From an uncultured Muribaculaceae bacterium (GTDB lineage Bacteria > Bacillota_I > Bacilli_A > RF39 > UBA660): DNA of 64,000 nucleotides. A model generated the notes under the pieces. It searched no databases, had not been told where the DNA came from, and was given only the letters and a program-made list of their open reading frames with translations. The stretch is taken from contig CAZTRB010000005.1 of NCBI GenBank assembly GCA_964616485.1, forward strand, positions 11,592 through 75,591, read 5' to 3'. Below, one piece after another: positions 8,701 through 40,310 of this stretch (positions are counted from its first letter, which is position 1; each line of letters begins with the position of its first letter). The position numbers and the translations under genes are program-made.

Positions 8701-9193
8701 TAAAAGGAACTTTACCTTCCATCGTAGAAAGATAACTAACGTTACTTAAATCCATTACTTCTTGAACAGAAGAGGATTGTAATATAGCAAACCCCGTCGT
8801 TCTAGCAGCATAGATATCTTGATGATCTCCTAAAATAGAAAGCGAATGACTCGCTAAAGAACGAGAAGCTACATTTATAACACAAGGAAATAACTGCCCT
8901 GCAATCTTATACATATTAGGAATCATCAACAAGAGTCCTTGAGAAGCCGTAAATGTCGTAGCTAAGATACCATTTTGAAGAGCACCATGAACCATAGCGA
9001 TAGCACCGGCTTCACTCTCCATCTCGACTACTTTTATTTTCGATCCCCAATAATTCTTCTTCCCTTCAGCACTCCAACTATCGACATTCTCAGCCATAGG
9101 TGATGCGGGTGTTATCGGATATATACCGGCTAGTTCAGAAAAATTATAAGCGACTAAACTACACGCTTCATTACCATCCATTATCTTATACAT
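5765..9193 (-). CDS. nifJ: pyruvate:ferredoxin (flavodoxin) oxidoreductase, single-chain PFOR
   Basis: N-terminus MDGNEACSLVAYNFSELAGIYPITPASPMAE. Two 4Fe-4S ferredoxin motifs (CIMCNMCAFVCP, CTGCGLCVNICP). TPP-binding region GGDGWAYDIGYNGLDH. Start taken at ATG 9193, with an AAAGGAG RBS upstream. Confidence 0.92.
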   Translation of the reverse strand: MYKIMDGNEACSLVAYNFSELAGIYPITPASPMAENVDSWSAEGKKNYWGSKIKVVEMESEAGAIAMVHGALQNGILATTFTASQGLLLMIPNMYKIAGQLFPCVINVASRSLASHSLSILGDHQDIYAARTTGFAILQSSSVQEVMDLSNVSYLSTMEGKVPFINTFDGFRTSHELQKIEVIDFQKVKELINEDALKEFRSRALSINNLTRGTNTNDDIYFQLSEARNKYYDNLPDIVNEYMKKINAITGRDYKPFNYYGAKDATKIIVAMGSICETIKETINSLKGEKIGLIEVHLYRPFSSKYLLDVLPDTVTDIAVLSRTKEHGTSEPLYLDISNVIRETGKNIKVVGGRYGLSSKDTDPSLINAVYKFLDRKDKFNGFTIGIKDDLTNLSLDPITLTVDNETKEVVIYGFGSDGMVSVSKDIIKIVGNNTDSYVQGYFEYDSKKSGSVTKSHMRFASKPIKSTYYVNKPCLVVCTKDSYLSKFDMLDDIVENGTFIVNTFKDDKELFKALSNKDRAIIKNRNIKVYSLNANKISNEVGLGNKINTIMATAIFKVSKLIDFEIAFKEIKKALETLFKNKGTEVIEKNNRAIDRALETLTIVDFSGFDDIEDNKSSFVGKSIFDLINERRGYSIPVSEFEKIVDGSFVGGRSKEEKRNITDTVPVYNEENCIMCNMCAFVCPHGVIRPFLLNEEEVENAPESLKAKLIDANIKDQNLKYAIGVNIEQCTGCGLCVNICPGKKGEKALVMTAIEQINDEETLRETDYLFNVVTEKQVMTLNTVKGSQFATPKFEYSGACAGCGETPYIKLLTQLFGEELVIANATGCSSIYGGSVPSTPYSVPWANSLFEDNAEFGFGMRVSEVIHKDKIKMILRDNLSKINDNDLEVVNSYLEDTNLENSKRLYEIVDSLNIPELLEEKDFIKTKSFWIIGGDGWAYDIGYNGLDHVLASNEDVNILVLDTEMYSNTGGQASKSSKYGGIAKFAASGKETHKKNLAKMAMTYPHVYVATVSLGANMMQTIKAFNEAKNHKGPSLIIAYSPCIVQGIKAGMGTSIEEEKKATESGYFPIFRYNPTTEEFSLDSKADFDKYEEFLDGENRYAALNKVNPEKKDDFYDINKREAIRVYEHYESLKEDKKITE

Positions 9194-10142
9194 CAATATT
9201 TCTCCTTTTTAATCCCTTACTCATCTCTTTAATAATGTATATAGGTCTTTTCTTTATCTCTGAATATACCTTCGATAAATAGGCTCCTATTATTCCTAAT
9301 GAGAATAGTTGAACTCCTCCGACGAAGAAGATTAACCAAAATACTAATAACACACTACTTATAGAGACATCTATTATTAAGTTTACCACAATTATAACGA
9401 ATAAGACAAACGCTACGAGAGAAAATAATAGACTCATTACAAAAGGAATCATCAAAGGAACTGTTGAAAAACCAATTATTCCCTCGAAAGCATACACTAA
9501 GAGATTCCAAAAACTCCACTTAGTATTACCTGCCACTCTCTCGACATTCTTATACTCTAACCACTTAGTCTTAAATCCAACGAAAGTAAACAGACCTTTA
9601 GAATAACGATTATACTCTCTCATCGTCAAGATTGAATCGACTACTTGTCTTCTCATCAATCTAAAGTCTCTAGCTCCATCGACCATCTCTGTCTTAGAAA
9701 TTTTATTTATCAACTTATAAAATCTTCTAGCAAAGAAACTCCTAATAGGTGGTTCTCCTTTTCTAGTCGTCCTCCTACAAGCTACGACATCGTAGTCCTC
9801 CTCTTTAATAAGACGATACATCTCTTCTAAAAGACTAGGTGGATCTTGTAAATCAGCATCAAGCGTCGCTACATAATCTCCAGTCGCATGTTCTAATCCC
9901 GCTAAAACAGCACCTTCTTTACCAAAGTTTCTAGAAAGAGAAATATACTCTACTCTCTTATCTTTCTTCTTTAATTCTTTAATATATTCTAAAGTATTAT
10001 CTTTAGAACAATCATTGACAAAGACAAATTCAAAATTAACTTTCTTTAAGTTTTCTGCTATCCTAGTTACTTCTTCATAAAAGTAAGGAAGCGACTCCTC
10101 TTCATTATAACAAGGAACGACTAACGATATTTTTTCTCTCAT
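9186..10142 (-). CDS. GT2 polyprenyl-phosphate sugar transferase (GtrB/CsbB-like), with C-terminal TM helices
   Basis: ISLVVPCYNEEESL ... DADLQDPP (DxD) motif plus two C-terminal TM helices. Overlaps the PFOR start by 8 nt. Confidence 0.8.
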   Translation of the reverse strand: MREKISLVVPCYNEEESLPYFYEEVTRIAENLKKVNFEFVFVNDCSKDNTLEYIKELKKKDKRVEYISLSRNFGKEGAVLAGLEHATGDYVATLDADLQDPPSLLEEMYRLIKEEDYDVVACRRTTRKGEPPIRSFFARRFYKLINKISKTEMVDGARDFRLMRRQVVDSILTMREYNRYSKGLFTFVGFKTKWLEYKNVERVAGNTKWSFWNLLVYAFEGIIGFSTVPLMIPFVMSLLFSLVAFVLFVIIVVNLIIDVSISSVLLVFWLIFFVGGVQLFSLGIIGAYLSKVYSEIKKRPIYIIKEMSKGLKRRNIDV

Positions 10143-10143
10143 A

Positions 10144-11592
10144 CTATTCTTTAATCCTTCTTTCTATTTTTTCAAAGATTCCCATATACCTAACATAAGC
10201 GTCTTTTTCCAAAGGAATCTCATAATACTTTTTAAGTTCTTTTAACTCTTCACTATTTATCGGGTTAAACTTATAGACTAGTTTTAAAGGGTTAGCTTTT
10301 ATCTCGATAGTATTTTGATTAGATTCTAACTGTTCTTTAATGTATTCTCCCCTAGTCTTCTCAAAATAAGATATTAACAAGAAAGAAGAGATATAATAAA
10401 TTACTAACAAGCTCGTTAATAAGACGACTCTCTTACTAACATTAAATTCTTTATTACTAACAAATATTGCTAAGGAACTAATTAAAAATAAAGTAAAGGC
10501 ATAATTATTACCAAAGTCCCACTCCTGTGATATAAGACTAAAAAGACTAACTGCAATCGAGAAGATAAATAAGACATTTATTAATCTCTTACTCTTTAAA
10601 TCTTTACTATAATAGTGAAGACTTCTAATCAATAAATAAAAATATAATAAGTAATAAAAAGCATAATACCAATTCTCTACTGCAAAGAAACCGTTATAAC
10701 GATTAATTACTAAAGTTAAAGATACTGGCGAATAGAAAGAGAAATTATAAATAAAAGAAAAATACAAGATGATATTAAATAAGACGATAAGTATTCTAGA
10801 GTAAATCCCTTTAAGTCTTTCCCCTAAATAAAAGTTAATCGGTATCGTCGACAATATTATTAATAATATATTTCTAGAAAAAGTATTTTCGATAAAATCG
10901 GGAATACTATTAAAGACATAGTTTATATCGAGAATAAAAATACTCTCTTTAAAGAAACTAAAGACGAATAATAAAGTCAAGAGATGAAAGATTACTACTA
11001 AGAGATACTTTTTATTATAATTACATATTAAGTAAAATATATTTGCTATAACAAAAGAAATAGCGATGAAGATAGACGAGGTAATAACATAACTACCGAG
11101 AAGTATCATCATGACATAATCACGATAGTTTCTCTCTTTATCTCTTATACTAAATAGACTATAGAAATATATAAAACCTAGTAATATCGGTATCGTATAA
11201 CTAAAAGCACCACTTACAGAGACGTAATTATAAGCAAACATATCGACGCTGACTAAAAGCATTAATAAAAATGTTATCACATACATAAACTTGTTCTTTA
11301 CTATTCCTAATAGAGTGTTGGTCCTAAAGACAAACATCGAAGTAACTATCGCTATTATCAGATTAAACCAAACTTTATTATAAGAGAATATATTAATAAA
11401 AAAACCACTTATTACTCTTCCGTCTAAAATAGAAGAATTTTCTAAATTATAAGCGATCCCCTCTTTACCTAAAGAAAAAAAAGCCCAATCTATTCCACCT
11501 AATGGAGATAAAAAAGCCACTATCAAAAAGAAGAAAAAGACATATGTCGTTAACTTATATTTATAATCTATCGTTTTAATTCTATCATTCAT
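10144..11592 (-). CDS. polytopic membrane protein (>=10 TM), putative GT-C glycosyltransferase or glycan polymerase partner of the GtrB-like enzyme
   Basis: Hydrophobic throughout, with a ~75-aa soluble C-terminal tail. Sits immediately next to the GtrB-like GT2 in the same operon. Confidence 0.5.
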   Translation of the reverse strand: MNDRIKTIDYKYKLTTYVFFFFLIVAFLSPLGGIDWAFFSLGKEGIAYNLENSSILDGRVISGFFINIFSYNKVWFNLIIAIVTSMFVFRTNTLLGIVKNKFMYVITFLLMLLVSVDMFAYNYVSVSGAFSYTIPILLGFIYFYSLFSIRDKERNYRDYVMMILLGSYVITSSIFIAISFVIANIFYLICNYNKKYLLVVIFHLLTLLFVFSFFKESIFILDINYVFNSIPDFIENTFSRNILLIILSTIPINFYLGERLKGIYSRILIVLFNIILYFSFIYNFSFYSPVSLTLVINRYNGFFAVENWYYAFYYLLYFYLLIRSLHYYSKDLKSKRLINVLFIFSIAVSLFSLISQEWDFGNNYAFTLFLISSLAIFVSNKEFNVSKRVVLLTSLLVIYYISSFLLISYFEKTRGEYIKEQLESNQNTIEIKANPLKLVYKFNPINSEELKELKKYYEIPLEKDAYVRYMGIFEKIERRIKE

Positions 11593-11600
11593 AAAGTCTC

Positions 11601-12080
11601 CTATAACTTATCTATGTAATCCTCTATTAATTTTACCATATTTTTAGTATTACTCTCATACTTTTTAGGTTTAAAAGTCTTAGCTTTTTCTAAAGTCTTA
11701 GAAAGTTTATTAAGATCTTTAAGAGGAAGTATATATTTCTTAGAACTTAATTGTTCGATAATCTCTAATTGATGATCGTTATCATGCTCTTTAAACTTCT
11801 TTAGTCTAGGAGCAGCTATTACAACTTTATTATATTCTAATCCCTGTAAGATAGAACCTACTCCACCATGAGTAATTAATAAACTACAATCTTTAATCAT
11901 CTTAGCAAACTCTTCACGAGAAATAAAATCAAAGATTTTCATATTAGGACTCTCATACTTAGTATGACCTGCTTGGACAATTACTTCTTCTTTAATAGTT
12001 CCTTTCTTTATCTCTCTATCTATTTGCTCTAATAAACGTTTAAACTCTTTATCTTGAGTTCCAAGAGTAACTAATATCAT
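11601..12080 (-). CDS. Alg13-like glycosyltransferase subunit (GT28 C-terminal domain; Cps14G/EpsF-type)
   Basis: MILVTLGTQ ... THGGVGSI motifs. Start ATG 12080 overlaps the Alg14-like stop (TAATG), and a G-rich RBS lies upstream. The ORF-track GTG extension is not used. Confidence 0.75.
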   Translation of the reverse strand: MILVTLGTQDKEFKRLLEQIDREIKKGTIKEEVIVQAGHTKYESPNMKIFDFISREEFAKMIKDCSLLITHGGVGSILQGLEYNKVVIAAPRLKKFKEHDNDHQLEIIEQLSSKKYILPLKDLNKLSKTLEKAKTFKPKKYESNTKNMVKLIEDYIDKL

Positions 12081-12550
12081 TAGTAAATCCACCCCCCATA
12101 AACCGCTTTAGGATAAAGTTTTAACATACTCTCCCATTGAACGATAAATAAATCGGCAAAGAGATAGATTAACCTTCCCGTAATCGTCTTACTCTTACTA
12201 TTAGCAAGCGTCTCGATATAAATAATCTTACTACCGAATATTTTACCGACACAACACATTGGTCCTGCCGTATGAGCACCAGTAGTTATGATTACTTTAG
12301 GTCTAATCTTAAAGTAAAGAAAGAGACTCTTAAAAGAATTATATATTAACTTAAAGGGATAAGTTAATAAATGAGCCTTAGTTCCATAGACTAAATACTT
12401 TACTTTTCCCGGATATTTATCTTTTAAAGTCATATTAGATTTAGTCTTTTCTGTTATTATATAGTGATCATATTTCTCAAACATCGAAGACAACTTCATC
12501 ATCTCAGATAAATGACCACCAGTAGAAGATATAAATAAAACCTTTTTCAT
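12080..12550 (-). CDS. Alg14-like glycosyltransferase membrane-anchoring subunit (Cps14F-type)
   Basis: VLFISSTGGHLSEMMKL motif. Translationally coupled to the Alg13-like gene. Confidence 0.7.
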   Translation of the reverse strand: MKKVLFISSTGGHLSEMMKLSSMFEKYDHYIITEKTKSNMTLKDKYPGKVKYLVYGTKAHLLTYPFKLIYNSFKSLFLYFKIRPKVIITTGAHTAGPMCCVGKIFGSKIIYIETLANSKSKTITGRLIYLFADLFIVQWESMLKLYPKAVYGGWIY

Positions 12551-12557
12551 AAACCAC

Positions 12558-13772
12558 CTATTTTAGTATTTTAAACCAATCTTTCTCTATATTTTTAGCT
12601 AAGTACTTTTGAGATATTTTAAGATTCTCTTTACTTAGTTTTTCTCTATACTTATTATCTTTTAAAATAAGAACGATTTTTTCTTTTAAAAGGCTTAAGT
12701 CTCTATTAGGTATCAAAACATCACTATTATCTTCTAAGACTTCACATATTCCCTTAGCACTATCGAAACCAATAACAGGAAGTCCATAACTAGCAGCTTC
12801 GATTACGACTAAACCGAAAGACTCCGAGAATGATGTAGTTACGAAAAGAGAACTATCTAACATATACTTTTCTATCTTATCTTTAGATAAAAATCCGAGT
12901 AATTCGACATTATCATTTAAAGATAATTTCTTAATTTGTTTCTCTAAATTACTTCTTTCAGACCCATCACCGATTAGGTAAAGCTTAATATTAGGTATAT
13001 TTTCTCTAACCAAAGATAATACTTCTAAAAGGTCAGAGTGTCCTTTTTCTAGAGATAATCTTCCGACATTGATTATGTTATTTGTCTTTAATAGAGATTT
13101 TTTCTTCGGCAATTCGTCTAAGACATTGGGTATATAAAGACACTCTACATTCGTCTTATCTTTATAAAAGTCTCTGAGTTCTCTAGATACTAAGATAAAA
13201 TAAGAAAATCCTTTAATAGAAGATACTAACTTTCTAACATATTTTTTATCGTTATTATGATAGTTGTGATCGGTAACAATTTTTACAATATGTCTATTAC
13301 CATAAGTAGATACTAATCTATTATGGAAGGTCCTAGTAGTAATTACATACTTGCTATTTATTTTAATAATAGCATTAATATTTAAAAGACTTTTTTTAAA
13401 TAAGAGAACAAGAGCTATATATGCTTGTTTTAATATACCAAAGATATTCTTATTAGTTAATTCTTTTTTAAACTCTTCTCTATTAGGTTTAGAATCAATT
13501 AAATATTTTATCTTAATCTTCTTATCAAAATAAAACGCGGGTTGTTCTAGCAACTTATAAGTAGTTATAATCTCTATCTCAAACTTTTTATCTAGCATCT
13601 TACAAAGAGAAGACAAGTACTTTTCGATACCACCATATCCTAAATGAAGAGCTAATATCGTTATCTTATTTTCTTTTAGTTTTCTCTTGTTATATTTTAA
13701 AATTAAAAACACTAAAAATAAGATAATAACAAAAGACAATAATACTAATAACAGTTGCAATATATCACACAC
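12558..13772 (-). CDS. GT4-family (GT-B) glycosyltransferase with an N-terminal TM helix
   Basis: GRLSLEKGHSDLLEV ... ESFGLVVIEAASYGLPVIGFD (the E-x7-E region). Confidence 0.8.
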   Translation of the reverse strand: MCDILQLLLVLLSFVIILFLVFLILKYNKRKLKENKITILALHLGYGGIEKYLSSLCKMLDKKFEIEIITTYKLLEQPAFYFDKKIKIKYLIDSKPNREEFKKELTNKNIFGILKQAYIALVLLFKKSLLNINAIIKINSKYVITTRTFHNRLVSTYGNRHIVKIVTDHNYHNNDKKYVRKLVSSIKGFSYFILVSRELRDFYKDKTNVECLYIPNVLDELPKKKSLLKTNNIINVGRLSLEKGHSDLLEVLSLVRENIPNIKLYLIGDGSERSNLEKQIKKLSLNDNVELLGFLSKDKIEKYMLDSSLFVTTSFSESFGLVVIEAASYGLPVIGFDSAKGICEVLEDNSDVLIPNRDLSLLKEKIVLILKDNKYREKLSKENLKISQKYLAKNIEKDWFKILK

Positions 13773-13812: not shown

Positions 13813-13847
13813 TAGCAAGAAAAAAGATATCTTTTTCAAGATATCTT
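13813..13847 (-). terminator. rho-independent terminator of the giant prepilin-like gene (overlaps its stop codon)
   Basis: Two copies of the palindrome aagatatctt separated by tttc (13824-13847), preceded on plus by an A-run 13816-13823. Confidence 0.6.
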
Positions 13848-16800
13848 ATCCCCAATTTTCACAACCACAAGCTGCTGTTCTACAAGAATTATTTCCTCCT
13901 ACACAAGTACTATAAGTGTATAGACAATTATTCCATCCACATGCACTATGTTGACAATAATAGTATCCGGCACATCCACAGCAATCATTATAACAGGTTG
14001 CAGCTTCCTCACCAGAAACACAACATGTTGTCGAAGTTTTATACCATGTTTGGCCACCCGAACTAGGTTTGCTACTTGCACACTTAGTTCCGCACCCATA
14101 ACCTCCTGTGTTTTGGTAACATTCATAGATATTTCCTTTAGTTTTACAATATGTTCCGCAACAAGAGTAACTAGTACATCTTTTATTTCCAGTACATCCG
14201 CATCCGGCAGTATAACAAGAATTATATCCTCCAACACAAACGGACGGGTTACCTGTTAAACAAGAATTCCATCCACAATTAGCATGTTGACAACTCTTAT
14301 TGGTAACACAACTCGATGTTATAGAACAAGTTCCTGTATTACCCGCTCCATCTGTAACCGTGTATGTCTTTGTACCTTTAACATTTGAATCATTATATGT
14401 AGCTGGAGATACTCCACTTGCATTATCAGAAGTTGTAACTTTTACGGTTATTCCATTAGCTCCATTCGCTGTTTTAACAGCAGTACAAGTAGGATTAACT
14501 GTATCTCTTTTTATCGTAAATACATTAGATGCAGCAGATGCATTACCTGCATTGTCAATTGATCTTACATAGAAATTCCAATTCCCATCCCAGTTTATCG
14601 TCCATGGATTTGACATTGCTGTCCAATTTGCAGCATCATGACTATACTGATAACTAGCAATTCCAGAACCAGTTCCGTCCGAAGATGATGCAGTTATTAC
14701 AACATTAGATTTTGTCCAAGTGCCTGAAGTATAAGAACCTAGATTGATCGTTGGTTTTGAAGGTTTTGTTGCATCTCTCTTTATTGTTACGACATTTGAA
14801 TTATCACTTATGTTACCAGATTTATCTATAGCCCTTACATAAACGTTCGTAGATATATCTGAACTAATTGTCCATGGATTCGACATCGTCGTCCATCCCG
14901 ACGTCCCATTAGTACTATATTCATATCTATCTAAGTTAGTATCCGATGAACTCGCTGTTATGACAATATTTTGATTTGACCATGTATTAGATGTATATGT
15001 AGTACCATCTGCTTTTTTCAAGGTTAAAGTTGGTTTCGACGGTTTCGTCGCATCTCTTTTAACATTAAAGACGTTTGACACATCACTTATATTACCAGCA
15101 CCATCAGTAGACCTTACATAGTAATTACTTTCGACATCTGTACTAATTGTCCATGGATTTGCCATATTTGTCCATCCTGAAGTTCCATTAACACTATATT
15201 CATATTTACTTATTCCTGAAATATTATCAGTTGAACTTGCCGTTACGACTACATTGCCAGAGGTCCATGTCCCTGAAGTATAAGAACCTAAATTGATCGT
15301 CGGTTTCGATGGTTTAGTAGCATCCCTTTTGATAACTACGGCATTAGATACATCACTAACATTTCCTGAGGAATCGATTGCTCTTACATAGATGTTTGTC
15401 GAAGTATCCCAGTTAATCGTCCATGGATTTGTCATAGCCATCCATCCCGATGTTCCGGTCGTACTATATTGATATCCAGCTAAGTTATCATCAGTTGAAC
15501 TTGCTGTAATGATTATATTTTGATTTGACCATGTATTAGATGTATAAGTAGAATTGTCTGCTTTCTTCATTGTCAATGTTGGTTTTGATGGTTTCGTCGC
15601 ATCTCTTCTAACAATAAATGGATTTGAATTATCACTTACGTTACCAGCACCATCAGTCGATCTGACATAGTAAGTTTTATCGGTATCGAAGTTTATCGTC
15701 CATGGATTTGACATCGTCGTCCATCCTGAAGTTCCATTGTTACTATATTCGTATTTGCTTATTCCCGAAATATTATCAGTTGAACTTGCCGTTACGACGA
15801 CATTACCAGAAGTCCATGTACCAGAAGTATACGAACCTAGATTAATCGTCGGCTTCGATGGTTTAGTACCATCTATTTTTACCGTTTGGTTGTTCGGACA
15901 AGTAACACAGTTTCCTGCTCTATCACAAACCTCGCCCGGTCCAGCCGTCGTCGTATTTATATCACTAGTATAAGGTTTAGTAATTGTCGTATTTACACAA
16001 CCACTACCACTATCACTACAAGTACCAATTATATTTACAGTCGTCTTACTCCATGCAGAACTTCCACCACTACTTACACAAGTTGGTTTCGTCGTATCGA
16101 TCGTATCGACGACTACCGCTTTATTAGTAACATGTCCAGCTTGGTCCTTAACCCACACATAATATGTACCATTATCAGAAGCTATATTTGGAACACCAAT
16201 TCCAAAACTAGTTCTTGCCGATATAGCGGTAAATGTCGGTTGTGTCGTCGAACTCTTATTTATACCGTAACCGATTATTCCTGAATTAGTATCTGTTCCG
16301 GTAAATACTATCGTTCCGTTAAGTCCGTCTTGACCAGTATCGATTATCGTCGAGTACGCTACATCCCAACTTACTGAAGTACCAGAACCCGTCAAGTAAA
16401 CGTGTCCGAAAGTCGAGAACGTTCCCGAACTACCCGCTTTTTGAATATAGATATATTCTGCCCAATCTCCAGTTCCAGCTTGTGGAGTGATCCAGTAGAC
16501 GCTTGAACCTGTACCGGTAGAATTAGAAGCTCTTTGAATAGTATACCCAACTGGTATCTTTGCAATTATTCTATGAGCATATACAGCATTAGCTCTCGAA
16601 GTTACAGTTTGAACATAACCTCCTAATCCAGGAGAACTGACACCATTTGTCGTTATTCTCATAACGTATGAACCATATGGGTTAGATTGAGCTACTCTAG
16701 CGTGAGTAACAGTACCATTTCCACTATTATTATATACGCTAAAGTTATTTGTCCCAGAAGCAAACGTCGGATCTTTGAATAACGGAGTCCCTGATATTGC

Positions 16801-18897
16801 TTCTGATATAACCGGAGCATTTTTATCTATTCTTACGATTTGGTCAGCCTGGCAAGTAGTACAGTTTCCTGCATTATCACAAACTTGTCCAGGTGATTCA
16901 TTAGTCGAATTTATATTAGAAGTATATGTTTTCGTTACCGTCGAATTCACACAACCACTATCAGCGTCATTACACGTTCCAGTAATCGTGACATTCGTCG
17001 TTTTCCATGTAGCGCTTCCACCACTATTTATACATGTTGGTGGTTCGTTATCGGCAGTTATCGTTTGGTGATACCATCCGCCACTATTTGGCGATTGAGT
17101 TATGACGTTACCAGCATTATCAACTAGTCTCGTATAAACGGTATATACTCCTCCAGGTAAACTAACAACGTGTTTATTTTGTCCAGTAATAGATGTAATG
17201 CCACCTACAGCAACACCGTTTCTTTCCATCTTGACTTGGAACTCTTTAATACCACTCAAATTATCAGCAACCGTAATTGTCAACGTTTGATTAGCACTAT
17301 ATACTCCCGTTAATAAGCTATAACTTGCAGTAGGAGCCGTCTTGTCGATTCTAGAAATCGTTACTGATGAAGGATCAGATGATAAACCGACAACGTTTCT
17401 CGTACGAACTTGAGCATTCGTTACATTTGACGAATAAATATTATAATTTGTCGATTGCCAAGAAGCGCCATCATTAAACGAATACTCAGTCGTTCTAACT
17501 AATCCAGCTCTTGGAATCAAGTTAACTTTTACATTGTTCTTAGTCCAGATACCTGGAGAAGCAGCGACTAAATCAATTCTAGAAACATTGTAAGATACAC
17601 CACTTAGTGCTCCTAAAACTAATCTAAAGTTAGAGTATTGTCCAACCGAAGGTAAAATAAACTCTATGTCTCTAGTACCTTGAATCATTAATGCTGATAC
17701 TGAGAGTTCATTCCCATTTTGATCTTTAAAGTAGACTCTACCCGTCGTCGTCGTTGGAATATTAGTATTTAAAGTCACAGTTAATTTCTTAATACCATTA
17801 AATGTCGGATACGAAGCAGTACCAAACGTTATAACTGGGTTTGTCGTAGTCGTCGTTAGTATTGTACCCGCTAAATTTAACCCCGAAAGAGTATATTCAT
17901 ATTGGTTAGGGAACAATTGATATGCATACTCAACATCAAATTCTGGTTTTGGAACACCCACTCTTACGTCGATTGAACAAATCCCCTCATTACCCGCTTC
18001 GTCTTTAACATAACCTACGACTGTCGTAAGTCCCATATCTAATTTAAGACTATCTTTTTTATTATAATCAATATTCTTTATACTAGTACCAAGTCCATAA
18101 GTTAAAAGTCCACTATCAGCATCATCTTTAGTATCGAACTTAACATAAACGTCTCCCGAATACCACCCTAACGCTTCTAAGTTTCCGCCATCTCTAATAA
18201 GTGTACAAGTTGGAGGAGTCTTATCGACATATACTTTTACCGGACAACTAGTTTGATTTCCACTCTTATCAACTATATTAATAAAACTCTCAGTAGTAGT
18301 CGTACCAAATGTCTTAGAGAATCTAGCTAAACGACAACCACTAGTTTGGTCACTACAACCAACACTAATTGTTCTATTTTCCTTAGTCCATGTAGTAGAT
18401 TCACCTATGACACTACCACATACCGGATTATCATTATCAGATTCATACTTAGAACAAGCCGAACCTTCAGTAGAATAATTTTCACAATACAAACACGCTC
18501 TATATTCGTAGTCACCACTAACTTTGCTTACCTCAACATAACTAAGTAAACTATTACAAAATCCATCTGTTTCCGGATCTTTTAATTCATCAGAGTAACC
18601 TTTTTCAATAACATCACTCAAATAGACAATAGATCTATCTCCATCGCCTGGTAAATTACAAGTGTAATCATTATTAGCAATACAATCAACAACCATGTTA
18701 TTCGTAGCTGTTTGCATATTCTTTTCATAAGCTAAATAAGTATTATCCTTACTACTTCCAATATAATTAGAAATAGCCGGAACTGTAATGATTGCCAATA
18801 TAGCAATTATCACGATAACGGCGATTACTTCTATTAAAGTAAACCCTTTCTTTTTCTTGGCTTTTTCCAAAATTTTACTAACAGTTTTCTTTCGCAT
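13846..18897 (-). CDS. giant modular type IV pilin-like protein (~1683 aa): class III signal peptide, cysteine-containing HYR/Ig-like modules, five tandem Ig-like repeats and a cysteine-rich C-terminal domain
   Basis: MRKKTVSKILEKAKKKKG|FTLIEVIAVIVIIAILAIITVPAI is a canonical prepilin leader, with Gly at -1, Phe at +1, Glu at +5 and a ~21-residue hydrophobic helix. AAGGAG RBS 8 nt before ATG 18897. The ORF-track upstream extension is translation of the promoter. Repeats of ~88-95 aa begin DATKPSKPT. The last ~160 aa contain about 34 Cys. Confidence 0.8.
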   Translation of the reverse strand: MRKKTVSKILEKAKKKKGFTLIEVIAVIVIIAILAIITVPAISNYIGSSKDNTYLAYEKNMQTATNNMVVDCIANNDYTCNLPGDGDRSIVYLSDVIEKGYSDELKDPETDGFCNSLLSYVEVSKVSGDYEYRACLYCENYSTEGSACSKYESDNDNPVCGSVIGESTTWTKENRTISVGCSDQTSGCRLARFSKTFGTTTTESFINIVDKSGNQTSCPVKVYVDKTPPTCTLIRDGGNLEALGWYSGDVYVKFDTKDDADSGLLTYGLGTSIKNIDYNKKDSLKLDMGLTTVVGYVKDEAGNEGICSIDVRVGVPKPEFDVEYAYQLFPNQYEYTLSGLNLAGTILTTTTTNPVITFGTASYPTFNGIKKLTVTLNTNIPTTTTGRVYFKDQNGNELSVSALMIQGTRDIEFILPSVGQYSNFRLVLGALSGVSYNVSRIDLVAASPGIWTKNNVKVNLIPRAGLVRTTEYSFNDGASWQSTNYNIYSSNVTNAQVRTRNVVGLSSDPSSVTISRIDKTAPTASYSLLTGVYSANQTLTITVADNLSGIKEFQVKMERNGVAVGGITSITGQNKHVVSLPGGVYTVYTRLVDNAGNVITQSPNSGGWYHQTITADNEPPTCINSGGSATWKTTNVTITGTCNDADSGCVNSTVTKTYTSNINSTNESPGQVCDNAGNCTTCQADQIVRIDKNAPVISEAISGTPLFKDPTFASGTNNFSVYNNSGNGTVTHARVAQSNPYGSYVMRITTNGVSSPGLGGYVQTVTSRANAVYAHRIIAKIPVGYTIQRASNSTGTGSSVYWITPQAGTGDWAEYIYIQKAGSSGTFSTFGHVYLTGSGTSVSWDVAYSTIIDTGQDGLNGTIVFTGTDTNSGIIGYGINKSSTTQPTFTAISARTSFGIGVPNIASDNGTYYVWVKDQAGHVTNKAVVVDTIDTTKPTCVSSGGSSAWSKTTVNIIGTCSDSGSGCVNTTITKPYTSDINTTTAGPGEVCDRAGNCVTCPNNQTVKIDGTKPSKPTINLGSYTSGTWTSGNVVVTASSTDNISGISKYEYSNNGTSGWTTMSNPWTINFDTDKTYYVRSTDGAGNVSDNSNPFIVRRDATKPSKPTLTMKKADNSTYTSNTWSNQNIIITASSTDDNLAGYQYSTTGTSGWMAMTNPWTINWDTSTNIYVRAIDSSGNVSDVSNAVVIKRDATKPSKPTINLGSYTSGTWTSGNVVVTASSTDNISGISKYEYSVNGTSGWTNMANPWTISTDVESNYYVRSTDGAGNISDVSNVFNVKRDATKPSKPTLTLKKADGTTYTSNTWSNQNIVITASSSDTNLDRYEYSTNGTSGWTTMSNPWTISSDISTNVYVRAIDKSGNISDNSNVVTIKRDATKPSKPTINLGSYTSGTWTKSNVVITASSSDGTGSGIASYQYSHDAANWTAMSNPWTINWDGNWNFYVRSIDNAGNASAASNVFTIKRDTVNPTCTAVKTANGANGITVKVTTSDNASGVSPATYNDSNVKGTKTYTVTDGAGNTGTCSITSSCVTNKSCQHANCGWNSCLTGNPSVCVGGYNSCYTAGCGCTGNKRCTSYSCCGTYCKTKGNIYECYQNTGGYGCGTKCASSKPSSGGQTWYKTSTTCCVSGEEAATCYNDCCGCAGYYYCQHSACGWNNCLYTYSTCVGGNNSCRTAACGCENWG
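14500..15870 (-). repeat. five tandem ~265-285 bp intragenic repeats (alternating two subtypes) encoding Ig-like modules
   Basis: Recurring ...ggtttcgatggtttagtagcatc... blocks at about 15834, 15571, 15290, 15036 and 14741. Protein repeats are TKPSKPTINLGSYTSGTWT.../TKPSKPTLTxKKAD... Confidence 0.8.
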
Positions 18898-18931
18898 AAT
18901 AAAGCTCCTTGTATTATCTTTTATATATAAC

Positions 18932-18960
18932 ATTTTAATATCTTTATACATAATAGTCAA
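18932..18960 (-). promoter_or_regulatory. sigma-A-type promoter of the prepilin-like gene (TTGACT-17-TAAAAT)
   Basis: Reverse complement of agtcaa at 18955-18960 gives the -35. Reverse complement of atttta at 18932-18937 gives the -10. The spacer is 17 nt. Confidence 0.5.
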
Positions 18961-19105: not shown

Positions 19106-21121
19106 ATGAAGAGATTTTTATTCGTGATTCTTTTGATATTGCTTCTTTTTAATAGTGGAACAGCACATGCAGAAATTATTAAGACTGGTCGGGCTATAGC
19201 CGATGTTGGGCTTAGAATTAGAGCTACTCCCTCTACTAGCGGAACACAATTAGGAACGATACCCTATGGAACGATAGTTAGAATCATCGGTGAAGCGAAT
19301 GGTTCGGGATGTAACGATCCTTGGTTTCAAGTAATTTACTCTACTGGTAATAGTAATATAAACGGTTATTCTTGTTCTACTTATATAACGGAAATTACGG
19401 AGTATGATACTGAAGAGAATACGCCTACAACACCACCAGTAAATAGCGAGGACTTCGAAGCCTACTTAACTTCACAAGGATTCCCAGAAAGCTACAAAGT
19501 CAAACTAAGAATTTTACACGAACAACATCCTAATTGGATATTTGTCGGTATAAAAGTAAGAGAGTCTTGGCAAACGTCTTTAAATCTTCAAGGCGAAGAT
19601 GGAAGAAGTACATTAAATGTTAATGCGGCAAGAAAGGCTTTGGGGCAAGAGGGATATTTATCGACTGCAGCGGGACACTATAACTATGAGACTGACACTT
19701 TTATTCCTAAAGATGGTACTTATTGGTTTCAAGCTAACTCAGATGCTATTGGATATTACCTTGACCCAAGAAACTTCATGGACGAGAAAAATGTTTTCAT
19801 GTTCGAAAGTCTTTTACAAAACGATGCTATTCATACTAAATCAGTAGTCGACGGGATCTTGTCGAGTGACTTCATGAAACAATATTCTAATCATTTCATG
19901 AAAGGTGCAAGAGACTACAACGTTTCTGCTACGCACTTAGCATCACTATCTAGACAAGAAGTAGGAATTACTAACGGTAACATTGTTACTAACGGAAAAG
20001 CCGGAGTATTATCAGACGGAGTTAACTATAACGGTTACTATAACTTTTTTAATATCGGAGCATCATCATCGGGAGATCCGAAGTTAAAATCGTTACAAAG
20101 CGCTAAAGCTCGCGGCTGGAATTCACCTGAGAAATCAATCGTTGGTGGAGCGGCTTTTATATCTAGTGGTTATATTAATGCCGGACAATACACGGCTTAT
20201 CTTCAAAAGTTTAACGTCGATCCTAATGCTACTAAAGGAATATGGCATCAGTATATGACTAACATAGCGGCATTATCTTCGCCGGCAATTACGACATATA
20301 ACTCATATAATAATCTCGGTTTCATAAACCATTCATTTATATTCTCGATTCCAATATTTACTAATATGCCAGAAAGCACTTCGTTACCTCCCTTAGGTAA
20401 CCCAAATAACTGGCTAAAAGAAATAAAGATAAATGGTATCGCTTTATCTAGTTTCTACGGTGGTACCACTAATTACACCATCGATATTCCTTACGAGGAA
20501 GAGATTACAGTAGAGGCTAAAAAAGTAAATAGTAACGCTACTGTATCAGGAACTGGAACAAAAGCCTTAACGGAAGACAAAACCACTTTAACGATTAAAG
20601 TCACTGCTCAAAACGGAAGCGTTAAAAACTATACGGTAACAGTTAATCGTGGGATAAAAGACGATCCTAACTTAGAGATAGATCTTCTATTAAAAGATGT
20701 CTTAACTGATAGCAAATACAAATACGATAGTAAAAATCTTTGGGGAATAACTCTAGGAACTAGCGTTAAGAGTCTTACTAGTAAAATAAAAGGAAAATAT
20801 AAAACAGTAAGTGTAAATATAAAAAATAAAGACGGCAATACTAAAACAGACGGTGTCATAGTTACAGGAGATAAAGTAACGATAACGACTAAACAAGAAT
20901 CTACTACTATCGAAGTAATAATCTTTGGTGATACTAATGGAGACGGATACATCTCGGCAATCGACATCTTAAGCGCTCAAAAACATATCCTTGGATATAC
21001 TACTCTTTTAGGAACTAGTTTCAAAGCGGCAGACATAAATAAAGACGGTGTCATATCAGCTTATGACTTACTACAATTTCAAAAACACGTCTTAGGTTAT
21101 ACTAATATAAGCCAATCATAG
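19106..21121 (+). CDS. secreted multidomain putative peptidoglycan hydrolase: signal peptide, SH3b, GH73/glucosaminidase-like domain, cadherin-like beta-sandwich and a C-terminal dockerin
   Basis: GGAGGTG RBS. Signal peptide ...GTAHA. SH3b-like region IRATPSTSGTQLGTIPYGTIVRI. GH73-like motifs LSRQEVG...NFFNIGA...YMTNIAA. Cadherin-like region LKEIKINGIALS...TIKVTAQNGSVKNYTVTV. Dockerin repeats GDTNGDGYISAIDIL and DINKDGVISAYDLL. Confidence 0.7.
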   Translation: MKRFLFVILLILLLFNSGTAHAEIIKTGRAIADVGLRIRATPSTSGTQLGTIPYGTIVRIIGEANGSGCNDPWFQVIYSTGNSNINGYSCSTYITEITEYDTEENTPTTPPVNSEDFEAYLTSQGFPESYKVKLRILHEQHPNWIFVGIKVRESWQTSLNLQGEDGRSTLNVNAARKALGQEGYLSTAAGHYNYETDTFIPKDGTYWFQANSDAIGYYLDPRNFMDEKNVFMFESLLQNDAIHTKSVVDGILSSDFMKQYSNHFMKGARDYNVSATHLASLSRQEVGITNGNIVTNGKAGVLSDGVNYNGYYNFFNIGASSSGDPKLKSLQSAKARGWNSPEKSIVGGAAFISSGYINAGQYTAYLQKFNVDPNATKGIWHQYMTNIAALSSPAITTYNSYNNLGFINHSFIFSIPIFTNMPESTSLPPLGNPNNWLKEIKINGIALSSFYGGTTNYTIDIPYEEEITVEAKKVNSNATVSGTGTKALTEDKTTLTIKVTAQNGSVKNYTVTVNRGIKDDPNLEIDLLLKDVLTDSKYKYDSKNLWGITLGTSVKSLTSKIKGKYKTVSVNIKNKDGNTKTDGVIVTGDKVTITTKQESTTIEVIIFGDTNGDGYISAIDILSAQKHILGYTTLLGTSFKAADINKDGVISAYDLLQFQKHVLGYTNISQS

Positions 21122-21130
21122 GAGGACTTT

Positions 21131-22546
21131 ATGAAAAAAATCTTTAAACCATTTACAATGGTTTTCCTTTTTACAGTGATGTTTTTGTTTAATAATAACG
21201 TCTTGGCAGCTAACTTAAATGTCTCGATAACCTCGAGTACTAGTAGAGCGGTAGTTGGTAACAATATTACTTATACGGTTAGAGTGTCTTCTAATGCTAA
21301 ATTTGGTAATATTCATTATAGATTAGAATATGACACTTCTAAGTTAACTCATGTAAGTGGAACACTAAATAATTTTGATTTAAATGTTATCGATAAATAT
21401 TCTGCTACTTACACTTTTACTTTTAGAGCAAAAGCAAGTGGTAATGCTAGAGTAACGTTCGTAATCAACGAAGCCTTAGAATTAAATAACAATTCTTTTA
21501 ATTATAATACTAGAACCAATAAAGATATAACGATCATAACTCAACAACAATTAGAAGCTAGCTATAGTAAAAACAACTACCTATCATCTTTAAAAATAGA
21601 TAATTTTGAAATGACACCGGCTTTTAATAAAGATACTTTAGAATACTCGATAGAATTAGAAAACGATGTTAAATCAATAAATATTAGCGGTACTAAAGCA
21701 GATTCAACAGCATCAGTCGAAGGTTTGGGTGCACATGAATTAATAGAAGGACCAAATAAAATAAATATAAAAGTTACTGCCCAAAACGGTGCCTCTAGAA
21801 CATATACGATAAATGCAACGGTAAAAGAATTAAATCCCATTATCGTAACTGTCGACGGCAAAGAATATAATGTCGTTAGAAAAAAAGACCTAATAAAAAA
21901 ACCTAATAGCAAATACGAAGAGACGATTATACAAATAAATGAAGAAGATGTCCCAGCTTTCATAAACGAGACGACTAAAGTAACATTAATCGGGCTTAGA
22001 GATGAAGAGGACAACATTTCTTTATTTAGTGTTAAAAATGATACGTATATTCCTTACCAAGAATTCGCTTTTAGTAGTATAATATTTACGGAAGAAAATT
22101 TAGACGATCTTCCTAAAGGTTATACTAAAACTAAATTAAAACTCGAAGAAGTAGAAATAGACGCTTATCAAGATAACTCTAACTTAAATTTCTACCTAAT
22201 AAAAGGAGTGAACATTGAAACGGGAATAACTTCCCTATATCAATATGATAGTAAAGAAAACACTCTTCAAATATATAATGATTCATTAGCTAAACAAAAT
22301 AAGGAATTAACTAATAAGAATAATATTTATCTTTATACTATAATTGGTCTAATAGCACTCATAGCTATATCTTCCGGAACGATATTAGTAAAGACTTTAA
22401 AAAATGAAAAACCTAAAATAAAAAAAGAAGAGAAGACCGACAAAAAAGTCAAAGAAAAAGTAGAGGAACCGAAAGAACCTATCATAGAAGAAGAGAGTCT
22501 AACAAAACAAATAAAGAAAATGAAAAAAAATAAAAAACAATCTTAA
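21131..22546 (+). CDS. membrane-anchored cohesin-like scaffold protein (signal peptide, cohesin-like domain, cadherin-like domain, C-terminal TM and Lys-rich tail)
   Basis: AGGAGG RBS. Cohesin-like pattern NVSITSSTSRAVVGNNITYTVRVSSN...IHYRLEYDTSKLTHVSG...RVTFVINEA. Cadherin-like region LSSLKIDNFEMTPAF...INIKVTAQNGASRTYTINATV. TM helix IIGLIALIAISSGTILV followed by a lysine-rich tail. Confidence 0.6.
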   Translation: MKKIFKPFTMVFLFTVMFLFNNNVLAANLNVSITSSTSRAVVGNNITYTVRVSSNAKFGNIHYRLEYDTSKLTHVSGTLNNFDLNVIDKYSATYTFTFRAKASGNARVTFVINEALELNNNSFNYNTRTNKDITIITQQQLEASYSKNNYLSSLKIDNFEMTPAFNKDTLEYSIELENDVKSINISGTKADSTASVEGLGAHELIEGPNKINIKVTAQNGASRTYTINATVKELNPIIVTVDGKEYNVVRKKDLIKKPNSKYEETIIQINEEDVPAFINETTKVTLIGLRDEEDNISLFSVKNDTYIPYQEFAFSSIIFTEENLDDLPKGYTKTKLKLEEVEIDAYQDNSNLNFYLIKGVNIETGITSLYQYDSKENTLQIYNDSLAKQNKELTNKNNIYLYTIIGLIALIAISSGTILVKTLKNEKPKIKKEEKTDKKVKEKVEEPKEPIIEEESLTKQIKKMKKNKKQS

Positions 22547-22561
22547 TATACTGGAGGAATT

Positions 22562-24667
22562 ATGAAAAAGAAAAAGATCAAATACCAAAATATATTCACA
22601 ATACTTTGTATCTTAAGCAGCTTATATCTAATCCAATCTATCTACTTATTTTCACAAATAGAAACAGTTATTAGATACTCTGTAATTGGTATTTTAGTTC
22701 TTTTCGACTTCTTTATATTAATTAAGATGTTTTTCTTAAAGACTAAAAAAACTATTATATATATTATAGTCTTAGTCTTTTTTAGTGGAATATATATATT
22801 CTTAGGATACAATTTAAATAGAATATACTCTTATTTTACTAACTTAAATAAGACGATTACTTATTCGACTAGTTTAGTTACCTTAAAAAGTACTAAAGAT
22901 GTCGATCTAATAACACTTAAGAATGCTAATATAGGTCTTATCGATGATCCGACTTCTGAAGATGGACACATCTTAGCACAAGAGATAATAAAGAAAGAGA
23001 GTTTATCTAAAAACAATAATATTATCTATAGGCATTCATATACTGAACTTATATTAGATTTATATGATAAAGACTTAGACTATATTTTTCTTCCTAGTTC
23101 TTATGTCGATATCTTTAGTACGATCGAAGGTCTTGAAGATATAGAAGATAAAATTAAGACTATTCTAACGACAGAGATGGAAAAGACTAAAGAAGAGGCA
23201 CAACTATTAGGAGATCCTAAGAATATAGATGAACCATTCACGATGTTATTAATAGGTATTGATTCAACGGCTGATGGTATTCAAAATGCCGACTCATTTA
23301 ATGGAGATTCTCTTATGGTACTTACTTTTAATCCTAAGACGATGACTGCTACGATGTTAAGTATACCTAGAGATACGTATGTTCCAATAGCATGCTTTCC
23401 AAATAAAATAGAAAATAAGATAACTCATTCTGCTTCTCGTGGTACAAGTTGTGTTATAAATACTATTCAAAACTTATTGGATATAAAAATAGACTATTAT
23501 ATGAAGATTAACTTTACTGGTCTAGTCGAACTAGTCGATGCCGTCGGTGGAGTCGAAGTCGATGTTCCTTATAGTTTTTGTGAACAAAATAGTAAGAGAA
23601 AATTCGGTAATAGTACTATCTATGTAAAAGAAGGTTTAAGGACACTTAATGGTGAAGAGGCCTTAGCATTATCTAGAAATAGAAAGAATAATTATGAATA
23701 TTGTTCTAAAGAATGGACTAAGGGAAATAGAAGTGACTTTGTAAGAGCAGAGAACCAACAAAAAGTAGTTCAAGGAATATTAAATAAAGTAAAAGGTTAT
23801 ACTTCTATTAACAAAATAGAAGAGTTATTAAAAATAGTCTCTAAAAACTTAGATACTAATATGAGTGAGAAGACGATTTTCTCATTCTATAATATTGCAA
23901 AGGATGTCATGATATCATCGTCTAATTCTGATATACTATCTATTCAAAGATTAGAGATAGTCGGATGGGGACAAACGATATACGATGAGACATCTAAGTT
24001 ACAGTTGTGGAATTATGTTCCAAATAAGAGAAGTACCGAAGATGTAAAAGAAGCTATTAAAATAAATTTAGGACTGAAAAAACATGAGTTAATCAAGACT
24101 TTCACTTATTCTTGGAAAGAAGAATATACTCAAAAGATTCCAGGTAAAGGGCCTTATAGTATATATACTACTTATGACTTGCTAAAAGACTTTACTAACA
24201 TGAATATAACGGATGTCGAGCTATGGGCTGAAAAAAACGACATTACTTTAGTCATAGAAGAAGTAGAAAAGGTCGGTTACAAAAATGGTACAGTCGTTAA
24301 TCAAGAGTATCCAGTTAATAAGAGATTAGATTTAATACCCGATAGAACATTAAAAATAGAAGTAGTCAAGAATAAAGATACTAAAATAGACTGTTTAAAA
24401 GACGAGGAAAACATTATTTGTCTAATACCTGACTTTATCGGTAAAACTAAGAAAGACGTAGCTCTTTGGGGAAATAAGTTCTCTAATCTAGTAGATGTTA
24501 AATATGTAGAAGTGGAGTCTGAAGAAGAAGAGAATACGATAATAGATCAAACGATTAAAGGTATTACGATAAAAGAATTACTTGAGAATAAAGAGAGTAT
24601 CACTTTTACTATCGTTAAGAAAAAAGAAATAATACCACCTATCGAAGAAGAAATGGAAGAAGAATAA
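22562..24667 (+). CDS. LCP (LytR-CpsA-Psr) family glycopolymer ligase with an N-terminal membrane region and an extended C-terminal domain
   Basis: TMLLIGIDSTADG ... DSLMVLTFNP ... SIPRDTYVPIA ... DYYMKINFTGLVELVDAVGGVEVDV. C-terminal ~250 aa of unknown fold with an acidic tail. Confidence 0.8.
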   Translation: MKKKKIKYQNIFTILCILSSLYLIQSIYLFSQIETVIRYSVIGILVLFDFFILIKMFFLKTKKTIIYIIVLVFFSGIYIFLGYNLNRIYSYFTNLNKTITYSTSLVTLKSTKDVDLITLKNANIGLIDDPTSEDGHILAQEIIKKESLSKNNNIIYRHSYTELILDLYDKDLDYIFLPSSYVDIFSTIEGLEDIEDKIKTILTTEMEKTKEEAQLLGDPKNIDEPFTMLLIGIDSTADGIQNADSFNGDSLMVLTFNPKTMTATMLSIPRDTYVPIACFPNKIENKITHSASRGTSCVINTIQNLLDIKIDYYMKINFTGLVELVDAVGGVEVDVPYSFCEQNSKRKFGNSTIYVKEGLRTLNGEEALALSRNRKNNYEYCSKEWTKGNRSDFVRAENQQKVVQGILNKVKGYTSINKIEELLKIVSKNLDTNMSEKTIFSFYNIAKDVMISSSNSDILSIQRLEIVGWGQTIYDETSKLQLWNYVPNKRSTEDVKEAIKINLGLKKHELIKTFTYSWKEEYTQKIPGKGPYSIYTTYDLLKDFTNMNITDVELWAEKNDITLVIEEVEKVGYKNGTVVNQEYPVNKRLDLIPDRTLKIEVVKNKDTKIDCLKDEENIICLIPDFIGKTKKDVALWGNKFSNLVDVKYVEVESEEEENTIIDQTIKGITIKELLENKESITFTIVKKKEIIPPIEEEMEEE

Positions 24668-39059: not shown

Positions 39060-39073
39060 CTTGACCTCCTATT

Positions 39074-40213: not shown

Positions 40214-40310
40214 GGTCCTCCTATTATAAATATTATATACTACAACAAAGAAAAAAAACAACTTTTACAGTCTTTTGTACTGTTTAATTGTTTTTTTGTA
40301 AACTTATCTT

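Follow-up and report, generated by a model that had tools for sequence, protein, structure and literature searches.

A divergent DUF6056-family GT-C glycosyltransferase predicted in a compact, probable lipid-carrier glycosylation cluster of uncultured Bacilli

The window analyzed here is a 64,000-nucleotide stretch of contig CAZTRB010000005.1 (positions 11,592 to 75,591, assembly GCA_964616485.1) from an uncultured bacterium placed by GTDB in the RF39 lineage of Bacilli_A. Its minus strand carries, from 13772 to 9186, five packed open reading frames (ORFs) that encode, in transcription order, a GT4 glycosyltransferase, an Alg14-like protein, an Alg13-like protein, a 482-aa membrane protein, and a GT2 glycosyltransferase. 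We found that the 482-aa protein is a divergent GtrC-type GT-C transferase of the DUF6056 family with a conserved aspartic acid in its first outer loop. With middling confidence, we favor the view that the five genes form a compact lipid-carrier envelope-glycosylation operon of small-genome uncultured gut and rumen Bacilli, in which a two-branch route would decorate a wall glycan. The GT-C enzyme most likely acts on a cell-wall sugar polymer rather than on the giant pilin-like protein encoded directly upstream. The system belongs to the known class of multi-component transmembrane glycosylation systems, with one unusual feature, a fixed triad of Alg14-like, Alg13-like, and GT-C genes.

Results

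The 482-aa membrane protein is a divergent DUF6056 member with a predicted GT-C fold

The membrane-protein gene (10144..11592, minus strand) encodes a product with at least 10 hydropathy peaks and, in a structure model, about 12-13 transmembrane (TM) helices. These numbers agree with the at least 10 TM helices proposed in an earlier reading of this DNA made from its letters without database searches (the sequence-only reading). The same reading had described the five-gene minus-strand cluster, and Pfam and NCBIfam searches confirmed its ORFs and gene identities. The 482-aa protein has no Pfam match up to E = 10, an NCBIfam scan was likewise empty, and the protein itself does not reach the gathering threshold of PF19528. 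Its relatives were found by a word-indexed protein search, which returned 45 full-length proteins at 40-82% identity and two at 27-28%; five relatives at 41-45% identity carry precomputed PF19528 matches. A profile search of 1.84 billion representatives retrieved 1229 relatives at E <= 0.001, and the scanned relatives P0047, P0055, P0056, and P0064 scored 73-148 bits for PF19528, where the cutoff is 27. When the clade of the window protein was aligned by hhalign with Pfam-positive DUF6056 proteins, the two matched with a probability of 100% (E 9.4e-68) over 473 aligned columns. PF19528 is DUF6056, and a newer Pfam table gives the same accession the name GT_STM0557_N. STM0557-0559 is a Salmonella gtr operon that adds alpha-1,4-glucose to O-antigen (PMC3688519, PMC13505456). 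A literature search on DUF6056 found one unrelated phage-defence paper and nothing else.

The AlphaFold2 model of the 482-aa protein, built from a 25-sequence alignment, has a pLDDT of 85.7 and a pTM of 0.87. Foldseek matched this model to STT3 and AglB with a probability of 0.97-0.98, and mycobacterial arabinosyltransferases rank among its top fold matches; major facilitator superfamily and other transporters reached a probability of at most 0.16, with TM-scores of 0.1-0.17. As modeled, then, the protein has a polytopic fold that can be superposed on solved GT-C enzymes. A profile of its clade found no match at E <= 1 among all PDB sequences. Residues conserved in at least 90% of the broad family are P30, G33, D34, D35, G58, R59, Y132, N241, and P435, and the candidate catalytic residue D35 is invariant in two alignments of 25 and 19 sequences. 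Because a K/R-rich N-terminus precedes the first TM helix, the Asp35 loop would lie outside the membrane, which would make D35 an acidic residue of the first extracytoplasmic loop. The YfhO domain PF09586 is not matched by the protein, and neither are PF04932, PF13425, and PF01943; neither a Wzy_C or O-antigen_lig domain nor a fold of that kind was found in it.

The partner genes encode a GtrB-type enzyme, a split glycosyltransferase, and a GT4 enzyme

The last gene of the cluster (9186..10142, minus strand; one nucleotide after the membrane-protein gene) encodes a 318-aa GT2 protein (PF00535, E 1.5e-40), which the sequence-only reading had called GtrB-like. Database comparison bore this out over the full length: residues 4-307 align to residues 27-329 of the Synechocystis GtrB structure 5EKP with E 2.3e-71, and the match to ArnC has E 8e-44. 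Its DxDxQ motif reads D95-A-D97-L-Q99 in the translation. Two C-terminal TM helices are indicated by hydropathy peaks (214-232 and 239-257), after which a further hydrophobic stretch reaches to about residue 290. Judged by its sequence, this is a bona fide GtrB-type enzyme, a predicted polyprenyl-phosphate sugar synthase of the kind that loads a nucleotide-sugar monosaccharide onto undecaprenyl phosphate. Its best NCBIfam match is PgfS (NF047588), at 314 bits; since this is below the cutoff of 500, the sugar cannot be named.

The Alg14-like protein (12080..12550, minus strand; 156 aa; PF08660, E 3.5e-18) scores 171 bits against the PssD model NF041549, above its cutoff of 110. It shows no hydropathy peak, so a TM helix is not predicted, and it is 74-84% identical to its counterparts in relatives. 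The Alg13-like protein (11601..12092, minus strand; PF04101, E 1.4e-13) scores 151 bits against the PssE model NF041548, above its cutoff of 120. Direct reading of the junction between the two genes shows a TAATG, in which the stop codon TAA (12082-12080) overlaps an ATG (12080-12078), as the sequence-only reading had noted. Because of this overlap, the Alg13-like protein most likely starts at 12080, giving a product of 159 aa, the length also given by a separate gene call. Elsewhere in the cluster, the intergenic spacing is 1-8 nt. With both subunits above their equivalog cutoffs and their genes adjacent, the pair is assigned to the PssD/PssE (Cps14F/G) type of heterodimeric glycosyltransferases, Alg13-like being the predicted catalytic subunit.

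The first gene (12558..13772, minus strand) encodes a 404-aa protein of the GT4 family (GT-B fold; PF00534, E 3.5e-40) with one N-terminal TM helix, predicted to be a further cytoplasmic glycosyltransferase. It reaches no NCBIfam equivalog cutoff, the best match being SdgA at 92 bits, where 800 are needed. Eleven relatives have an orthologue of 680-720 aa whose N-terminal domain contains 8-12 TM helices (L006:6890-9001 and the corresponding genes of L008-L013, L015-L017, and L020); in seven other loci the GT4 is short (two) or absent (five). Pfam scans of this polytopic domain found no match, and pairwise comparison showed the long GT4 to be collinear with an O-antigen_lig-GT4 fusion (L026:4078-6453). 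The GT4 of the window is thus a truncated form that has kept only the last TM helix of the polytopic domain.

We found no gene for GtrA, Wzx, an O-antigen ligase, or an initiating phosphoglycosyltransferase in the 64-kb window. For GtrA in particular, PF04138 was unmatched among the scanned window ORFs and a tblastn search with the GtrA domain was also empty, in line with the statement of the sequence-only reading that no GtrA/GtcA-type flippase is visible. The locus, which has no small flippase gene of this type, is therefore not a complete three-component Gtr system (GtrA, GtrB, and GtrC). By analogy with Listeria and Lactococcus, the flippase may sit elsewhere in the genome (PMC8035078).

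The Alg14-like/Alg13-like/GT-C triad is constant in related loci

Gene order was compared in 19 related loci, which come from metagenome-assembled genomes of uncultured Bacilli from rumen and gut, one of them a complete genome of 1.31 Mb. The Alg14-like, Alg13-like, and GT-C genes follow one another in this order in all 19. Downstream sequence is readable in 17 loci, and a GtrB-type gene lies immediately downstream of the triad in eight of them and is absent from the locus in nine. The most constant partner of the GT-C gene is therefore the Alg14/Alg13-like pair, not the GtrB-type gene. Loci without the latter would need a paralogue to provide the donor, unless the GT-C enzyme uses a different one. 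In some relatives its position is taken by a gene of about 580 aa with a serpin domain (L003:11500-13245, L004:3271-5016); a 565-aa ORF at the same position in L021 (11466-13163) was grouped with these by position and not by domain scan.

Upstream, 13 of the 19 loci have a divergent block of dockerin, cadherin-like, and LytR-CpsA-Psr (LCP) genes directly next to the cluster, usually followed by an RNase J gene, and three (L005, L008, and L011) have a pilin-like gene directly upstream. A pyruvate:ferredoxin oxidoreductase (PFOR) gene lies downstream of the cluster in the relatives. Among the four proteins compared, the GT-C enzyme evolves fastest, with a median identity among relatives of 54%, against 83% for the Alg14-like protein, 72% for the Alg13-like protein, and 80% for PFOR; its median identity to the window copy is 43%. 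The same contrast is known from Salmonella, where GtrC is variable and GtrA and GtrB are conserved (PMC3688519). Across loci L003-L022 the GT-C enzyme matches its window copy at 40-45% identity, a little less than the 45-56% seen for the secreted dockerin and cadherin-like proteins. On a tree built from PFOR identities by the unweighted pair group method with arithmetic mean (UPGMA), the organism of the window is the outgroup.

The neighborhood of the wider DUF6056 family was sampled in 43 metagenome loci found with a 14-sequence alignment; L026 lies outside this sample. In 17 of the 43 loci, a GtrB-type GT2 gene lies no more than about 2 kb from the DUF6056 gene, and these GT2 proteins are 51-70% identical to that of L026 (31-34% in two loci), which in turn is 57% identical to the GT2 of the window. 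An Alg14/Alg13-like pair stands beside the DUF6056 gene in seven of the 43, and both kinds of partner are present in L041, as they also are in L026. Two fusions, each known from one contig, join the family to its partners. P0186 (L025:1532-3445), encoded directly downstream of a GtrB-type GT2 gene, carries an N-terminal GtrA domain ahead of the DUF6056 domain, and P0060 (L026:8001-9992) is an Alg13-like-DUF6056 fusion that directly follows an Alg14-like gene inside a Wzx/Wzy-type polysaccharide locus. Distant DUF6056 genes lie in Wzx/Wzy-type loci with Alg14/Alg13-like genes, GT4, and GtrB-type GT2, and these loci also carry O-antigen-ligase-like proteins, UDP-glucose dehydrogenase, UDP-galactopyranose mutase, and further GT2 and GT4 enzymes. 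The triad itself recurs in a branch (L028, L032, and L066) whose identity to the window protein is only about 25%. The recurrent neighborhood of GtrB-type and DUF6056 genes and the GtrA-DUF6056 fusion lend support to the lipid-carrier route suggested by the sequence-only reading.

The pilin-like protein is a variable neighbor

Directly upstream of the cluster, on the same strand, lies a 1704-aa ORF for a giant prepilin-like protein (13846-18960). A prepilin N-methylation motif (PF07963) is recognized in it with E 5.8e-7, along with six OmpL47-type barrel repeats. About 34 residues precede the GFTLIE motif, so the TTG start is probably too far upstream and Met22 (MRKK...) is the likelier start. 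At its C-terminus, about 200 aa form a Cys-rich tail in which C-x-x-C-G-C patterns recur, and no pilus assembly genes were seen near the gene.

The sequence-only reading had called this protein Ser/Thr-rich and had offered it as a possible target of O-glycosylation by the cluster. Its composition is indeed high in Ser and Thr (24.8%, versus 9-19% in the other scored ORFs of the window), but the peptide quoted in support falls inside the repeated OmpL47-type barrel domains, and so does the richest 30-aa window (43% Ser+Thr), which lies within folded repeats. Neither the pilin-like protein nor the LCP, PBP1, and LtaS-like proteins showed a disordered poly-Ser/Thr tract, and their richest 30-aa windows do not exceed 43%. 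Ser/Thr richness was therefore rejected as a glycosylation signature of the pilin-like protein. In known GtrB/GT-C protein systems, the GT-C enzymes are of the YfhO family and poly-Ser/Thr disordered tracts serve as acceptors (bioRxiv 10.1101/2024.05.05.592596).

The pilin-like and GT4 genes are 73 nt apart, and this gap holds an A/U-rich hairpin with a 10-bp stem and a GAAA loop, followed by a U-run (13824..13847, minus strand), which overlaps the pilin-like stop codon. Its predicted folding energy is -10.2 kcal/mol (z -1.47), and 13 of 200 shuffled sequences fold equally well or better, so it is at best a possible intrinsic terminator. A consensus terminator scan, which as a whole performed at chance level, missed this hairpin, which has no G-C pairs. 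A sigma-70 promoter scan found 48 sites where 46 were expected and was uninformative on transcription units.

The pilin-like gene thus appears as a variable neighbor, present in 3 of the 19 loci when the triad is present in all of them. This variable linkage, the folded repeats without a tract, the possible terminator, and the difference from YfhO-family enzymes make a dedicated role in pilin glycosylation unlikely. The giant pilin-like protein is probably encoded next to the cluster by chance.

Discussion

A proposed two-branch route to a decorated wall glycan

In the mechanism that we favor, an initiating enzyme from another locus would supply a lipid-linked glycan primer, to which the PssD/E pair and the GT4 enzyme would add sugars on the cytoplasmic face. 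The GtrB-type enzyme would meanwhile make an undecaprenyl-phosphate-sugar. Flippases encoded outside the cluster would flip both lipids, the GT-C enzyme would transfer the sugar onto the glycan outside the membrane, and the conserved neighboring LCP enzyme would lastly attach the glycan to peptidoglycan. A wall polymer fits better as the acceptor because the LCP block lies upstream in 13 of the 19 loci and because distant DUF6056 genes lie in Wzx/Wzy-type loci. Known Gram-positive systems usually have their GT-A and GT-C genes side by side, and the flippase is often unlinked and shared (PMC8035078). The sequence-only reading had also considered decoration of wall polymers, naming the nearby LCP and LtaS enzymes; the conserved LCP block upholds the first half of this proposal, but the LtaS-like gene (49484-51568) is 36 kb from the cluster and was rejected as a close neighbor.

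Several observations weigh against this two-branch mechanism. The sugar, the acceptor, and the lipid intermediate are all things that we infer, and the 64-kb window holds neither an initiating transferase nor a flippase that we could find. The sequence-only reading had suggested looking for a GT-C fold with a DD/DE motif in the first outer loop; the fold came out like that of STT3 and AglB, which speaks for a GT-C enzyme and against a Wzy polymerase or transporter, but the motif is there only in part, because the window protein reads SPLGGIDW, with Ile34-Asp35 where the family has Asp-Asp, and keeps only the second aspartate. In 9 of 17 relatives the GT-C gene is intact where the locus has no GtrB-type gene. 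The triad, constant in 19 of 19 loci and echoed in one Alg13-DUF6056 fusion, is explained at least as well if the pair makes the donor of the GT-C enzyme as if it builds the acceptor. The GT4 enzyme of the window has lost the polytopic domain of its relatives, so the pathway may be partly decayed. Finally, since the pilin-like neighbor falls in three separate lineages on the PFOR tree, its adjacency may be ancestral and repeatedly lost while the triad never was.

Alternative explanations

In the main rival reading, all five genes would act in one line, with undecaprenyl monophosphate as the carrier, on the model of the Lactococcus pellicle (PSP): the GtrB-type enzyme would prime this carrier with one sugar, the PssD/E pair and GT4 would elongate the same lipid, and after flipping the GT-C enzyme would transfer a short oligosaccharide en bloc onto a wall polymer. 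Such a route would account for the absence of a phosphoglycosyltransferase from the cluster and for the packing of its five genes, and it accommodates the invariant triad and the fusion P0060 better than two branches do. Yet characterized Alg13/14 and Cps14F/G-type enzymes use diphosphate-linked acceptors, with which a monophosphate route conflicts; the GtrB-type primer gene is absent at nine related loci that keep the triad, and P0060 comes from a single contig. We hold this linear route to be doubtful, even with its experimental precedent in the pellicle system, where the GlcNAc-P-C55 produced by WpsA/B is lengthened by cytoplasmic glycosyltransferases and, as has been proposed, joined to rhamnan by the GT-C enzyme WpsJ (PMC10821137). 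A different idea treats the triad as a self-contained module, in which the MurG/Alg13-type enzyme would dock on the cytoplasmic face of the GT-C enzyme and elongate a polyprenyl-linked sugar, and the GT-C enzyme would transfer the product en bloc outside. We consider it improbable. If true, the triad would reproduce in minimal bacterial form the eukaryotic path that leads from Alg13/14 to oligosaccharyltransferase, and it would have been kept as the core envelope- or protein-glycosylation route of a reduced-genome Bacilli lineage, with the GtrB-type and GT4 genes as optional accessories.

Protein O-glycosylation, with the GtrB-type and GT-C enzymes acting on Ser/Thr of the pilin-like or other surface proteins, has its models in streptococcal GtrB/PgtC2 and PgfS/PgfM1, systems that are known to glycosylate proteins (bioRxiv 10.1101/2024.05.05.592596; PMC5856776). 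PgfS is the best NCBIfam match of the GT2, and the Ser/Thr-rich pilin-like protein is encoded directly upstream on the same strand, a position that it also holds in L005, L008, and L011, which represent two further lineages. However, the PgfS score is below its cutoff, 16 of the 19 relatives have the triad without an upstream pilin-like gene, and a possible terminator separates that gene from the cluster. Moreover, the known protein-glycosylating GT-C enzymes belong to the YfhO family, to which the 482-aa protein does not, their kind of poly-Ser/Thr tract was not found in the four surface proteins, and a PssD/E pair and a GT4 would have no role in those systems. We therefore regard protein O-glycosylation as unlikely. 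Least probable by far is that the 482-aa protein is a Wzy-type polymerase, an O-antigen ligase, a flippase, or a glycan transporter and not a glycosyltransferase, an outcome that would have spoken against the GT-C idea of the sequence-only reading. Like Wzy proteins, it is polytopic, fast-evolving, and encoded in a glycan cluster, and it has no assigned Pfam family; but the low transporter scores and the three unmatched polymerase, ligase, and flippase families speak against it, as do the invariant outer-loop Asp and the GtrA fusion of the DUF6056 family. The relatives, in addition, have a separate polytopic domain on their GT4, collinear with the O-antigen-ligase-like PF13425 domain. The Wzy, flippase, and transporter assignments were rejected on fold evidence.

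Comparison with known glycosylation systems

The favored wall-glycan route can be set beside several characterized systems. In GtrABC of Salmonella and Shigella, as here, a GtrB-type GT2 adjoins a polytopic GT-C protein of the Pfam family PF19528, named after STM0557; the GT-C gene evolves much faster than its partners, and extracytoplasmic transfer from an undecaprenyl-phosphate sugar is presumed (PMC3688519). Unlike those hosts, the present one is Gram-positive and has no O-antigen, and neither the cluster nor the rest of the window yielded a GtrA gene. The 482-aa protein also lies below the Pfam threshold and has Ile-Asp in place of Asp-Asp, the cluster includes an extra PssD/E pair and a GT4, and it is chromosomal and syntenic rather than prophage-borne. 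Closer in host type are Gram-positive systems such as CsbB/YfhO/GtcA, GtlA/GtlB, CsdAB/CD/EF with CflA, GacI/J/K/L, and GtsABC, in which a GT-A enzyme of the GtrB/CsbB type likewise adjoins a GT-C enzyme, the flippase is often encoded elsewhere and shared, and the acceptors are lipoteichoic acid, wall teichoic acid, or wall polysaccharides attached by LCP enzymes (PMC8035078). Their GT-C enzymes, by contrast, are listed under YfhO, PMT-2, Scs3p, or no family, and none under DUF6056 (PMC8035078, Table 2), and their GT-A/GT-C pairs are not fixed beside an Alg14/Alg13-like pair.

Like the cluster, the Lactococcus PSP locus (WpsA/B, WpsC and further enzymes, WpsG, and WpsJ) brings together an enzyme for GtrB-like priming, glycosyltransferases that elongate in the cytoplasm, and a GT-C enzyme (PMC10821137), a likeness that would let all five genes act in one line. 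It differs in that WpsA has no TM helices and needs the small activator WpsB, and in having its own Wzx flippase and polymerization proteins. As in Cps14F/Cps14G and PssD/PssE, the genes of the pair are adjacent and translationally coupled and both NCBIfam equivalog cutoffs are passed, but here the pair stands outside a capsule locus with CpsE, Wzx, and Wzy, its Alg14-like subunit has no predicted membrane anchor, and it is always followed by a GT-C gene, with an Alg13-like-GT-C fusion on one contig. Pseudomonas aeruginosa TfpW is a pilin-glycosylating GT-C enzyme encoded beside the pilin gene. The window resembles it in having a GT-C gene near a type IV pilin-like gene, but in the window the other genes from GT4 onward and the possible terminator intervene, and the adjacency occurs in 4 of 20 loci, counting the window. 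The streptococcal O-glycosylation systems (GtrB/PgtC2; PgfS/PgfM1/PgfE/PgfM2) also combine a GtrB-type synthase with a GT-C enzyme that has outward catalytic acidic residues (bioRxiv 10.1101/2024.05.05.592596), and differ in the GT-C family, the acceptor tracts, and the PgfS score discussed above.

The analysis assigns a fold and a probable activity to a protein without database annotation. Among the membrane components of a probable wall-glycan locus, this protein is the one most constantly present in its source organisms. The analysis also brings uncultured Gram-positive Bacilli of gut and rumen into the range of the DUF6056/GtrC-type GT-C family, of which the review of Gram-positive systems lists no member (PMC8035078), and it makes the Alg14-like/Alg13-like/GT-C triad a lead on how cytoplasmic and extracytoplasmic glycosylation are coupled.

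Flanking genes

At the downstream end of the cluster, the stop codon of the GT2 gene overlaps the start of the PFOR gene (window 9186-9196, minus strand: ATGTATAA), which may be ATG 9193 or TTG 9196; an AGGAGA ribosome-binding site precedes the ATG. Given this overlap, the transcription unit probably extends into PFOR. A central-metabolism gene thus looks translationally coupled to the glycosylation operon, whereas in relatives 100-200 nt separate the two genes.

On the plus strand, the window has its own copy of the divergent conserved block (19106-24667), which encodes an SH3 and dockerin protein, a protein with cadherin-like domains, and a 701-aa LCP enzyme that has a PASTA-like segment at its C-terminus. 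A distance of 8.8 kb separates the LCP gene from the cluster. To our knowledge, the combination of LCP and PASTA is unusual, and a dockerin is unexpected in a Bacilli lineage with genomes of 1.3 Mb. Farther along, the minus strand carries a small cluster (38019-41948). Besides a DUF5305 protein and a protein of 395 aa that has a signal-peptidase S26 domain, it encodes two unannotated proteins with local Ser/Thr-rich segments (40-43% in 30 aa), and it may represent a separate secreted-fibre or sortase-independent surface system.

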